DNA from: Octopus vulgaris
Taxonomy: Eukaryota
Direction of reading: 5' to 3'
NCBI GenBank assembly: GCA_951406725.2
Contig: OX597819.1
Location: forward strand, 61,194,001-61,258,000
Length of the DNA: 64,000 nt
The notes under the pieces are model-generated. The model saw only the letters and a list, made by a program, of their open reading frames with translations. It was not told where the DNA came from and made no database searches. Below are positions 21,610 to 51,619 of the stretch, piece by piece. Made by a program: the position numbers and the translations under genes. Positions within the stretch are counted from its first letter, which is position 1, and each line of letters begins with the position of its first letter.

Positions 21610-23643
21610 GTGAGTGTTTTTGGTAGACGGAAACTGAAAGAAGCCTGTCGTACACACAATCAACATATGCACAAACAAAAACACAAACCAAACTTCAGCA
21701 AAAAAGAATGGGCTGAGTTGAACAAATTAAAACTAGATAAAACAATAACAATCAAAGAGGCCGATAAAGGGAGTGCTGTTGTCTTAATGGATACGACATT
21801 TTACATAACTTTGGTACTTTCTATGCTGGAAGACACAACATACTATGAAAAGGCACAAAACTACAGTCAACAAAAAATAATGAGGGAACTAAAATCCATA
21901 TTAAACCCATACAAAGCAGGGCTCACCGACAAAGAATATGATTATATGACCAATTTCACAAGTAAAACTAGCCAATTCTACGGTATACCTAAGATCCACA
22001 AAAGTGAAAAAATAAGCAACGCATGCAAGATAGCTACAGACAAAATAATTAAAGTCCCTAATCCTAATGACCTCAAATTGAGACCCATAATAGCAGGTCC
22101 CGCATGCGAAACCCACCGCCTCAGTAACTTTTTAGACACCCTGTTAAAACCACTCCTCAAACATGTCAAAAGCTATATAAGGGACGACTTAGATATGCTC
22201 AATCACCTACCGAATACTATAAACAAAAACACCATACTGGTATCCTTCGATGTAGTCAACCTCTACTCCAATATCCCCCACAACCTAGGACTAGAGGCAA
22301 TCCAATTCTGGCTAGAGAATCACGCCAACGAACTACCACACCGCATCAAAAAAGAATTTGTGATAGAAGGGGTTAAATTCATCCTGGAAAATAACTTCTT
22401 CGCCTTCAATGACAACTTCTACCGACAAAAATCGGGGACTGCGATGGGTACACGAATGGCCCCCTCCTTTGCCAACCTAGTCATAGGATACCTAGAGATC
22501 AGTCTGTATCGTAAGGTTCTAGAAAGATATGGCAGCCCTTTCTCCATCTACATAGAAAACAACTGGAAGAGATATCTAGATGACTGTTTCATCCTTTGGC
22601 ATAAAAATATAGAAAAACTCATAGAATTCCAGAAAATTTTAAACGGACTGGACGTAAACATCCAATTCACGATGGAATATAGCCAACAACAACTCCCCTT
22701 CCTCGATATCCTCATTAAGAAAGCTAATAATATAATAGAAACAGACATATACTATAAGCCTACAGACTCTAAGCAATATCTTCCATTCAATTCATGCCAC
22801 CCCAGACACACCAGGATGAATATCCCCTTCAATCTAGCAAAAAGGATATGCACTATAGTCTCTAACGCAAACACCAGAGACACACGACTACAAGAACTAA
22901 AAGATACCCTAATCACCAGGAACTATCCACCTTCACTTATTGACAAGTGCATTCAACGTGCCCTTCAACTTAACATCAAGGAACTGAGACATCCCAAATC
23001 AAAGAAAAACTTACAACCAAAAGCCTTACCATACATCTCCACACACAACCCTCTCAATAACGAAGCCTTCGACACCATCCTCCACAACATACCCCTCCTA
23101 AAAAAATACCACAGAATGAACACAATCCTCCAAACACACACGATCATAAAAAGCAAAAGACAGCCTAGATCCATGAAAAGTCTCCTTACACAAGCCCGAA
23201 TTCACTCTTCAACACAGAAGCCGACAGTAAAAAAATGTGGAAGACCCAATTGCGGGATATGCGACTATCTAATCGAGGGTTCTGAGTTCTCCTTCAAACA
23301 GGGACAACGGTTTACAGTGAAAAGCAACTTCACATGTGCTTCGGAGAACCTAATATACTCACTAACCTGCTCCGGGTGTCAAGAGCAGTACATAGGCCAA
23401 ACAAAAAATGGTTTGCGTAAACGAATGGCCCTGCACAGATCCCAGATAAAAATTCCCCAAAACAGAAAAATAGCTTTTAGCCAACACATAGATACTTGCG
23501 CCAACAAAAAAACACCAAACTTCAGAATTTTCCCCCTCTACCAATGTAGGGACGATACAACCTCGAGACAAAGAATAAGTAAAGAAAATCTCTTTATTAC
23601 AAAATACAAGCCACTTCTTAACGGGTCTACGACAAACAATTAA
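21610..23643 (+). CDS. Penelope-like element (Neptune type) reverse transcriptase + GIY-YIG endonuclease, 5' truncated
   Basis: 677-aa open frame with IKEADKGSAVV, LRPII, SFDVVNLYSNIP, GTAMGTRMAP, RYLDD, LPFLD, YYKPT, Cys linker CGRPNCGIC and NLIYSLTC...YIGQT. The first ~14 codons are SINE-derived, so there is no native start. Confidence 0.95.
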   Translation: MSVFGRRKLKEACRTHNQHMHKQKHKPNFSKKEWAELNKLKLDKTITIKEADKGSAVVLMDTTFYITLVLSMLEDTTYYEKAQNYSQQKIMRELKSILNPYKAGLTDKEYDYMTNFTSKTSQFYGIPKIHKSEKISNACKIATDKIIKVPNPNDLKLRPIIAGPACETHRLSNFLDTLLKPLLKHVKSYIRDDLDMLNHLPNTINKNTILVSFDVVNLYSNIPHNLGLEAIQFWLENHANELPHRIKKEFVIEGVKFILENNFFAFNDNFYRQKSGTAMGTRMAPSFANLVIGYLEISLYRKVLERYGSPFSIYIENNWKRYLDDCFILWHKNIEKLIEFQKILNGLDVNIQFTMEYSQQQLPFLDILIKKANNIIETDIYYKPTDSKQYLPFNSCHPRHTRMNIPFNLAKRICTIVSNANTRDTRLQELKDTLITRNYPPSLIDKCIQRALQLNIKELRHPKSKKNLQPKALPYISTHNPLNNEAFDTILHNIPLLKKYHRMNTILQTHTIIKSKRQPRSMKSLLTQARIHSSTQKPTVKKCGRPNCGICDYLIEGSEFSFKQGQRFTVKSNFTCASENLIYSLTCSGCQEQYIGQTKNGLRKRMALHRSQIKIPQNRKIAFSQHIDTCANKKTPNFRIFPLYQCRDDTTSRQRISKENLFITKYKPLLNGSTTNN

Positions 23644-24422
23644 TATACCTCAACTTTAGAATAAAAGAAAAAAATATATATACACACACAAATACTACAC
23701 TCCATAGAATCCATTACTAATCAGCCCCTTCATAGCTATATTTACACCCATTCATATTCTCCCTTCTCTGTTTTTTTCTTCTTCTTCTTCTTCATCATCA
23801 TCGTTATCATCATCATCGGCGTCATCATCATCGCCACCATCATCACCACCATCTTCTCCTTCTCCTCCTTCTTCTTCTTCTTCTTCTTCTTCATCATCAT
23901 CGTTATCATCATCATCGTCGTCATAATCATCACCACCATCACCATCATCTTCTCCTTCTCCTTCTCCTTCTTCTTCTTCTTCTCCACCCCCTACCCCTTA
24001 AGTTTGTCACTAATGTTTTTTAGTATAACACCTACGCTAATTCTATAAACAAGCCTGTCAATATAAATATTCTCCTGAATTGAACTGAGACTGCCAGCCG
24101 CCACTGACCATTCAAAATACGACCATCAGGACACTCCCAGATTCTCCCACCCCCTTTCCTCACCAGCCTTCCCTCTACTACCCTACCAAGAACTCACAAC
24201 TACCTCGAACACACAAGTGCAAACAAGGGAGTCAGAGAAAGGCAGAATGCCACTTAAATCTGAACACTACTATAGAAATATTCTTTTAAAAAAACTTTTC
24301 TTCTAATTTTTCTAAATTTAATTATTTAATCGTTACAGTTGAAAAGGTCTCAAAATGACCGAAACCGGTACTGAAATGTTCACTATAAAATTATTTTAGC
24401 ATTTTCTATTTTTTACTTGTTT

Positions 24423-24427
<5 letters not shown>
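21651..24427 (+). mobile_element. Penelope-like retroelement copy (ORF, 3' UTR with triplet repeats, terminal HHR)
   Basis: Bounded by SINE 5' half and (TA)n; ends in T-rich tract after the HHR. Confidence 0.9.
24333..24376 (+). ncRNA. Type I hammerhead ribozyme, U3-A8 variant
   Basis: CAG TTGAAAA GGTC-tcaaaat-GACC GAAA CCGG TA CTG; palindromic stem III ACCGGT. Confidence 0.8.
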
Positions 24428-24470
<43 letters not shown>

Positions 24471-44572: not shown

Positions 44573-44644
44573 GGTCTCATGATGTAATGGTTAGCATTCT
44601 GGACTCTGAATCCATCGATACGAGTTCAAGTCTCGGTGAGACCT
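44573..44644 (+). tRNA. tRNA-Gln(CTG), possibly a pseudogene
   Basis: GGTCTCA TG ATGT AATGGTTA GCAT T CTGGA CTCTGAA TCCAT CGAT ACGAG TTCAAGT CTCGG TGAGACC T. Perfect acceptor stem; one mismatch each in the anticodon and T stems. Confidence 0.88.
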
Positions 44645-50414: not shown

Positions 50415-50459
<45 letters not shown>

Positions 50460-50625
50460 ATATATATATATATGTATATATATATGTATGTATGTATATA
50501 TGTATATATATATATGTATGTATATATGTATATATATATATGTATATATATATGTATGTATATATATATGTATATATATATGTATGTATGTATCTATGTA
50601 TATATATATATATATGTCATGTATC

Positions 50626-50663
<38 letters not shown>

Positions 50664-50707
50664 CATGTATATATGTATGTATGTATCTATGTATATATAT
50701 ATATATA

Positions 50708-51584
50708 TATCAGTAACAATAAAGGGTGAAATTAATTAATTTGGAATAATTATCAATTACACCAAGTAGATTTCGGCATGTAAAAGCCTCATTCGTGGAA
50801 AATTTAAGTAATACTAAGCAATTAAGGGTTTAGCAACGAATTGCCTCACCAACACACCGAATTTAGAAATAGCAGTCAAAGAGATATAGCTATTCCTTCT
50901 ACTAAAAGGGAGATCTCAAGGAATAGCTATATCTCTTTGACTGCTATTTCTAAATTCGGTGTGTTGGTGAGGCAATTCGTTGCTAAACCCTTAATTGCTT
51001 AGTATTACTTAATTTTCCACGAATGAGGCTTTTACATGCCGAAATCTACTTGGTGTAATTGATAATTATTCCAAATTAATTAATTTCACCCTTTATTGTT
51101 ACTGATAACCATATTTTATCCCAGTAAATGACCACAGCATCTTGTCTTGGCTACACGCGGGTGGAAGGGGGCTGGTGACACAAACTTTCATTCACACTTT
51201 GAATTTCGTGGTACTGGTCATGCTTTGGCTCGCTCTGACACTGAGTTGAGATGATGCCTTCTAGTATCTCAAAATTTAATATACAATTATTCAAAATTGT
51301 AGTATCCTACGCCGATGAGAAAAGAAGTTTGGGTAAGGTAGAATTTTCTAATTCTTATGCTTTCCTAAAACTTGATTTCGAAACGTACGTCCGTAGGTAA
51401 CTTAAAATTGTATGATAGATTGCCGTCATTTCATTCTTTCTTACCTGTCTGTGTTTGCCTTTCAAGTGCTGTGTTTTTACTGAGATCTCCCTTTTAGTAG
51501 AAGGAATAGCTATATCTCTTTGACTGCTATTTCTAAATTCGGTGTGTTGGTGAGGCAATTCGTTGCTAAACCCTTAATTGCTTA

Positions 51585-51587
<3 letters not shown>
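50708..51587 (+). mobile_element. Retrozyme/pLTR-like element: inverted arm + ~1.15 tandem copies of a 583-nt unit
   Basis: 50708-50898 is the reverse complement of 50918-51107 (one 1-nt indel seen); 50918-51005 recurs from 51501; (TA)n on both sides. Confidence 0.88.
51306..51397 (+). ncRNA. Type I hammerhead ribozyme, U4C variant with 61-nt stem II
   Basis: CCTACG CCGATGA GAAA...TTTC GAAA CGTACG TC CGTAGG. Confidence 0.85.

Positions 51588-51619
<32 letters not shown>

Follow-up and report, generated by a model that had tools for sequence, protein, structure and literature searches.

A 583-nt ORF-less hammerhead repeat family in Octopus vulgaris with the insertion anatomy of a non-autonomous Penelope-like element

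A non-coding unit that carries a hammerhead motif, is partly repeated in tandem, is preceded by an inverted arm and lies between TA-rich runs could be a non-LTR retrozyme, or it could represent the tandem pseudo-LTRs (pLTRs) left by a truncated Penelope-like element (PLE). The original prediction for positions 50708–51587 of the window, by which we mean the whole stretch of 64 kb that was analysed, preferred the former and kept the latter as its alternative. The question is which of the two this locus is, and how such a copy would have come to be inserted.

The window copy and its ribozyme

The main arm of the copy consists of one 583-nt unit without an ORF (50918–51500, forward strand), followed by an 88-nt repeat of the start of the unit (51501–51588, forward strand). 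The unit begins at 50918 and restarts at 51501 with the predicted period of 583, and the near-identity claimed for the repeats is complete, the 88-nt terminal redundancy being 100% identical. An inverted, 5'-truncated arm on the reverse strand meets the main arm head to head at 50918; it occupies 50711–50918 (208 nt, reaching 50708 if ambiguous TA is counted) and comprises unit positions 564–583 and 1–187 (or 190). The arm is near-perfect, as had been said, with one 1-nt indel, and the length of 190 bp originally given for it is only the part that lies past the unit junction. It does read across the junction between unit positions 583 and 1, and extends ~100 nt further than the end of the downstream partial copy. 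From this a tandem or circular template had been concluded, which does not follow: unit positions 475 to 583 and on to 190 are contiguous within one cut-to-cut monomer, and the junction is merely the 5'-truncation point of the window copy and no boundary of the family. It is the main arm (671 nt) that calls for a template longer than one unit, because it runs through the ribozyme cut site. What had been described as terminal redundancy is a pLTR, which stops at the 'short' 3' site defined below, and the stretch of inverted arm past the partial copy is a tail of ~100 nt, which ends at the 'long' 3' site.

A scan for TA runs placed TA-rich sequence on both sides of the copy, in agreement with the original description: a microsatellite at 50418–50710 forms the left part of the target site and (TA)n at 51586–51617 the right part. 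The unit was also correctly held to lack an ORF, the longest stretch without a stop codon being 72 aa in the six frames of 50700–51600; a dimer of the unit, compared by tblastn with 150 PLE proteins, gave one weak match (E 0.002, 34 aa). Elsewhere in the window, a tRNA-like sequence at 44573–44644 (forward strand; Rfam RF00005, 53 bits) may be a gene or the head of a SINE.

The predicted hammerhead was located as a type I motif at 51306–51397 (forward strand), consisting of stem I (51306–51311 and 51392–51397), the core CCGAUGA (51312–51318), a 61-nt stem II (51319–51379), GAAA (51380–51383) and a short, palindromic stem III. Both the core, which carries the substitution U4C, and the long stem II had been overlooked. 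The predicted cut falls between 51391 and 51392, corresponding to unit positions 474/475. Rfam at its gathering score called no hammerhead in the window copy. An 18-mer from the ribozyme has 1,102 exact matches in the genome, compared with none for its reversed control, and the window hammerhead is thus no product of chance; the family has no fewer than 1,102 units with a hammerhead. Of 151 motif matches, 149 have the core C(U/C)GANGA together with stems I–III, and the other two are false. U4C occurs in 100 of the 151, including all of the most-repeated types, and the canonical U4 in 49; core position N7 varies between U, G and A, as in known hammerheads. The base of stem II covaries, with compensated, double-sided changes among 48 distinct sequences at base pair 2 (A-U in 39, G-C in 7) and base pair 3 (A-U in 31, G-C in 17).

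The family and the ends of its insertions

The 2.8-Gb genome yielded 2,133 candidates, the best 40 of which scored 94–100% identity, and two 3' patterns had 678 and 270 genomic matches, with none for the reversed controls. We parsed 186 non-redundant insertions, made up of a first set of 126 and a second, independent set of 60 from the window's own subfamily; two further listed insertions were left out of the second set. Copies are dispersed across all large contigs, and the unit length stays at about 580–600 nt in divergent copies with identities down to ~72%. The family had been called young, which is true of its top subfamilies; the divergent copies, and the existence of two sister families, speak against extending the term to the whole.

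The two sister families, at 70–80% identity and with 1,790 and 2,170 candidates, are ORF-less, have ribozymes of their own and possess both end sites alike. Their units (L352–L381 and L382–L411, respectively) measure ~595 and 556 nt, with stems II of ~52 and 27 nt and a 3' block in common; the second family has the odd cores UUGAUGA and UCGACGA. The part best shared with them is unit ~18–190 (50935–51107 of the window, forward strand), with the short (88/94) and long (190/197) end sites. Helices of this block had 95.5% of cells paired, compared with 35–46% when slid, but neither a double-sided change nor an excess relative to shuffles was seen. From its conservation and the end sites we infer that the block is likely to be the region of enzyme recognition and of reverse-transcription start.

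The outward ends of the insertions fall at two fixed sites, ~100 nt apart, in 262 of 281 cases (178/193 in the first set and 84/88 in the independent set). The short class spans unit 66–97 (modes 88 and 94) and the long class unit 176–198 (modes 190 and 197), and TA-type repeats adjoin 254 of the 262 fixed ends. Two-armed insertions account for 68 of the 126 in the first set. Where both ends of such an insertion belong to the classes, one is short and the other long in 77 of 79 (54/55 and 23/24 in the two sets); 17 more two-armed insertions have an end that belongs to neither class. The 5' ends are variable and scattered over the whole unit, and the inverted arms differ in every copy. Permuted ends, which the original prediction had looked for in copies of a retrozyme, are consequently not what is seen at the 3' side. 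In PLE insertions as published, partial tandems form the pLTR, a 5'-truncated copy lies next to them in inverted orientation, and just one of the two ends carries a tail (PMC8557442 and PMC3846280). In vitro, reverse transcription was shown to start at two internal sites, and it is their spacing that gives the tail (PMC11167929). Fixed ends at two sites, variable 5' ends and the pairing of short with long are the same signature, which identifies the repeat as a non-autonomous PLE, that is, a non-LTR retrozyme.

In the first sample of 54 insertions, 5' ends piled up immediately downstream of the cut (unit 475–484; 8 of 81 arms, from seven insertions, 6.8-fold, p 3e-5), an excess that did not replicate. 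The retest on 60 new insertions of the window's subfamily gave 2 of 84 arms (1.6-fold, p 0.36), with a pooled local ratio of 2.4 (p 0.01), and we regard the pile-up as a weak lead. No arm ends at unit 465–474 in either sample. An apparent clustering of 5' ends on unit position 1 was an edge artefact of BLAST.

If the repeat were instead the pLTR or UTR remnant of 5'-truncated, ORF-bearing PLE insertions, as the alternative in the original prediction had it, the end signature would be explained, since it matches that of autonomous PLEs, and fragments of PLE ORFs do lie within 1.5 kb of 15 insertions (10 flanks inspected, five judged from end tables). However, these fragments come from various families and are separated from the unit by TA runs or situated on its 3' side; only at L015 is there a direct 5' join, and the partner there is an older, unrelated family, met at its natural 3' end. 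Considered as links to a parent, L038/L151, L132, L267, L269, L188 and L015 all proved to be merely neighbours. Tblastn of the flanks with Neptune-type, Hydra-type and 150 further PLE proteins found an own retroelement ORF joined to the unit in 0 of the 186 insertions. Head-to-tail repeats with a period of 583–602 leave no room for an ORF; the arm is at least one unit long in 79 of the 186 insertions (shorter in 107) and at least two units in 18, the longest having 6.3 units; and the sister families are ORF-less in the same way. Because no ORF is joined and arrays of two or more bare units exist, the repeat is not a pLTR left by a truncated Penelope. A remnant is already contradicted, and we consider it very improbable; the repeat is an ORF-less element in its own right. 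The repeats adjoining L039, L131, L134, L137, L188 and L015 contain further, unrelated hammerhead motifs with a long stem II.

The longest array, L111 (G000:C1:50430500-50437500), has private variants in the order ABC-ABC, and both of its end segments bear a private variant that is missing from the inner units. Local unequal exchange could make a periodicity of three units, which would suit a satellite or minisatellite with a passenger ribozyme, its spread being due to recombination of DNA or to a DNA transposon. Such spread is hardly credible for a family that is dispersed over all large contigs, is 5'-truncated with fixed 3' ends in strict (TA)n targets, has an inverted arm that is different in every copy and keeps its ribozyme stem compensated.

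Template, priming and helper

Our preferred reading, to which we assign a probability of about 0.85, is that the window copy is an insertion of an abundant ORF-less hammerhead family for which the RT/GIY-YIG protein of an autonomous PLE, probably of the Hydra clade, likely acts in trans as the copying enzyme. Anatomy, family size, the lack of a joined ORF, end statistics and ribozyme covariation were observed, and it is from these that we infer the mechanism. The arrays, the end statistics and the lack of an ORF also uphold the original view of an ORF-less tandem hammerhead family mobilised in the Penelope fashion. The template would be an RNA of more than one unit, either a read-through of a tandem copy with the ribozyme uncleaved or a circle. 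The enzyme would bind this RNA at the conserved block, nick (TA)n and then start reverse transcription internally at one of the two sites. Where both target strands are primed, the short site would serve one and the long site the other, and the two resulting arms would meet head to head at their incomplete 5' ends. In the window copy, the 671 nt that pass through the cut site would be cDNA from the short site, and the 208 nt of the inverted arm would be cDNA from the long site. The ribozyme, having a short palindromic stem III of the kind thought to act as a dimer (PMC4209133), may do so in arrays and release ~585-nt monomers, which possibly circularise; the window copy holds only one ribozyme and so could not release a monomer by itself.

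Dual priming is inseparable here from fold-back self-priming. Both 5' ends lie within 25 nt of each other in 19 of 55 inversions, and the linkage of private variants is mixed, tying the short arm to the 3' end of the long arm in L014 and L111 but, in L029 and L218, to the 5' part of the long arm.

A strict rolling-circle retrozyme would differ in that released monomers would be ligated to ~585-nt circles and an enzyme circling one such template would make the arrays. Folded as a circle, the cut-to-cut monomer is predicted at -154.1 kcal/mol, compared with -119.5 ± 5.6 kcal/mol for 60 shuffles (z -6.1), with 68% of it paired and the ribozyme formed, although a stable fold does not by itself establish a circle. 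A private variant occurs in every segment of 13 of 96 multi-segment insertions (5/5 segments in L128 and 4/4 in L014), which fits copying from a homogeneous template. In 35 of the 96, however, the segments differ at sites that segregate in the family (seven sites in L016), and these heteromeric insertions, together with the period-3 pattern of L111, require a heteromeric multimer, a switch of template or a subsequent duplication at the DNA level, and not one monomer circle. Among the 54 insertions of the first sample, 44 arms extend as far as the cut site and 34 of these pass through it, as copying round a circle would have it, but an uncleaved linear RNA explains the passage too, and was the main in vitro substrate for PAc (PMC11167929). 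Since the PLE reverse transcriptase starts internally, start sites that are fixed can be reconciled with a circle, and such circles have been shown for coral, mussel and axolotl (passages of PMC7229834), yet only one of nine Xenopus retrozyme dimers was cleaved in vitro, and U4C, said to reduce in vitro activity and nevertheless tolerated in a viroid (part of PMC3088659), may weaken cleavage. No run listed as containing the unit is recorded as RNA. The entire unit is present in assembled contigs from four runs that were guessed to be RNA; these contigs are uninformative on circles, as a circle junction reads like tandem DNA, and cannot show strand or level. Rolling-circle copying and a circular RNA are possible on the folding model and the variants, and the strict form has, in our estimation, rather less than an even chance.

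Intron-like signals are present at 51397–51500 (forward strand), where a GT just after stem I, starting from its last base, is followed by a pyrimidine tract and an AG. PLEs are known to keep introns near the pLTR. Among the contigs of the four runs guessed to be RNA, no splice joint for this stretch was found.

Autonomous PLEs with (TA)n at their ends are active in the genome: a Neptune-type family of 781 aa and Hydra-type families of 899 aa and ~727 aa, the Hydra type being assigned by comparing motifs with the published clade description. The 899-aa ORF, for which 150 protein-search matches were scored, has DKT, RW(K) and a C-terminal endonuclease (EN) with CxxC and CxH; the family has many copies at 95–99% identity, inserts in (TA)n and carries a ribozyme with a ~55-nt stem II and a palindromic stem III, and its two ends are ~155 nt apart. 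At L312 (G000:C1:119514000-119523999) this very active family forms 3,624-nt tandem units that are 99.9% alike, with a ~155-nt tail, and the ORF has a long low-complexity insert before the endonuclease and no Pfam match. The second active Hydra-type family (L322–L351, ~727-aa frames) has a short-stem hammerhead, so that a long stem II is not diagnostic of the clade. The active Neptune-type family (L091–L107) has an upstream ORF1, a short stem II, a U3-A8 core variant and a 38-nt tail. The window itself holds, at 21661–24430 (forward strand), a 5'-truncated Neptune-type PLE with a 684-codon open frame that is 67% identical to the 781-aa family, a GIY-YIG domain at its C end, a degenerate hammerhead-like motif near 24335–24370 and a (TA)n end.

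By nucleotide similarity, no autonomous relative of the unit was found in the Neptune-type 781-aa, Hydra-type 899-aa and 727-aa families or in the family neighbouring L015. Searches for a parent through the GIY-YIG family, Hydra-type proteins, sister-family DNA and the L015 neighbour, in which the best 40–150 of thousands of candidates were scored and a rare parent may be missed, produced no related autonomous element. The helper is thus assigned by architecture only, and the 899-aa family, which has the closest ribozyme and end design, points to a Hydra-clade PLE; on this comparison such a helper is likely, perhaps by two to one. A more elaborate picture would make the family a long-lived lineage of parasites of Hydra-clade PLEs, in whose hundreds of fresh insertions the mechanism of integration would be preserved: an asymmetric enzyme dimer would prime the two strands of the target from two obligatory, different RNA sites 100 nt apart, as reflected in 77 of 79 inversions, with an abundant 585-nt circular RNA as template and with a weakened U4C ribozyme favouring more-than-unit templates in the most-copied subfamilies. 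We think this unlikely to hold as a whole.

Comparison with known systems

The unit is a non-LTR retrozyme by the sequence-level definition in Li, Clavereau and Pollet 2026 (10.64898/2026.07.22.740005) and in passages of Cervera and de la Pena 2020 (PMC7229834), sharing with the animal elements described there ORF-less tandem units, a type I hammerhead and low GC. Further likenesses are a strongly self-paired circle (predicted here), autonomous PLEs in the same genome and a proposed status as non-autonomous PLE derivatives; a PLE origin of animal retrozymes has been argued, and their consensus lengths range from 51 to 972 bp (10.64898/2026.07.22.740005). The size of 583 nt, thought unusual for an animal unit in the original prediction, is within this range. 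In contrast to those retrozymes, the window family is known from sequence alone, with cleavage and circular RNA as predictions, and it has a 61-nt stem II, U4C as the commonest core and less than one unit in 107 of 186 insertions. Inverted arms, two fixed ends and (TA)n targeting are not described for retrozymes in the main text of 10.64898/2026.07.22.740005 or in the corresponding passages of PMC7229834, supplements aside. Searches for papers yielded no description of the 583-nt family, and supplements and repeat libraries (Repbase, Dfam) may hold one. The window element represents a new family, but the kind of system to which it belongs is already known.

The unit also shows every tested feature of a non-autonomous PLE insertion save a known parent. 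With EN+ PLE insertions it shares partial tandems, an inverted arm and a one-ended tail (passages of Craig et al. 2021, PMC8557442, and Arkhipova et al. 2013, PMC3846280), two internal start sites (Frangieh et al. 2024, PMC11167929), AT-rich targets and a hammerhead upstream of the ends. PLEs are known to include tandem forms that are non-autonomous, namely MRC1 and other Chlamys derivatives, and pLTRs work in trans (PMC8557442, PMC3846280 and PMC11167929, in part). Unlike EN+ PLE insertions, the window family is ORF-less and its tail is ~100 nt, compared with 30–40 bp in the published passages; the pairing of short and long ends is here quantified as near-absolute, at 77/79. The (TA)n targets and canonical-type hammerhead recall the Hydra-clade PLEs (Craig et al. 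2021, in part), and the local 899-aa Hydra-clade family resembles the unit in its long stem II, palindromic stem III and ~155-nt tail, although sensitive blastn detected no nucleotide similarity between them and a partnership is suggested by design only.

The near-absolute pairing of short and long ends, the long tail and the U4C core of the most-copied subfamilies are the noteworthy features of the family. A short RNA with two sharp end sites paired in this way is a compact substrate for questions of strand priming by PLEs and of the role of the ribozyme. The published idea that animal retrozymes are non-autonomous PLEs is here supported, in an invertebrate, by the anatomy of insertions rather than by co-occurrence.
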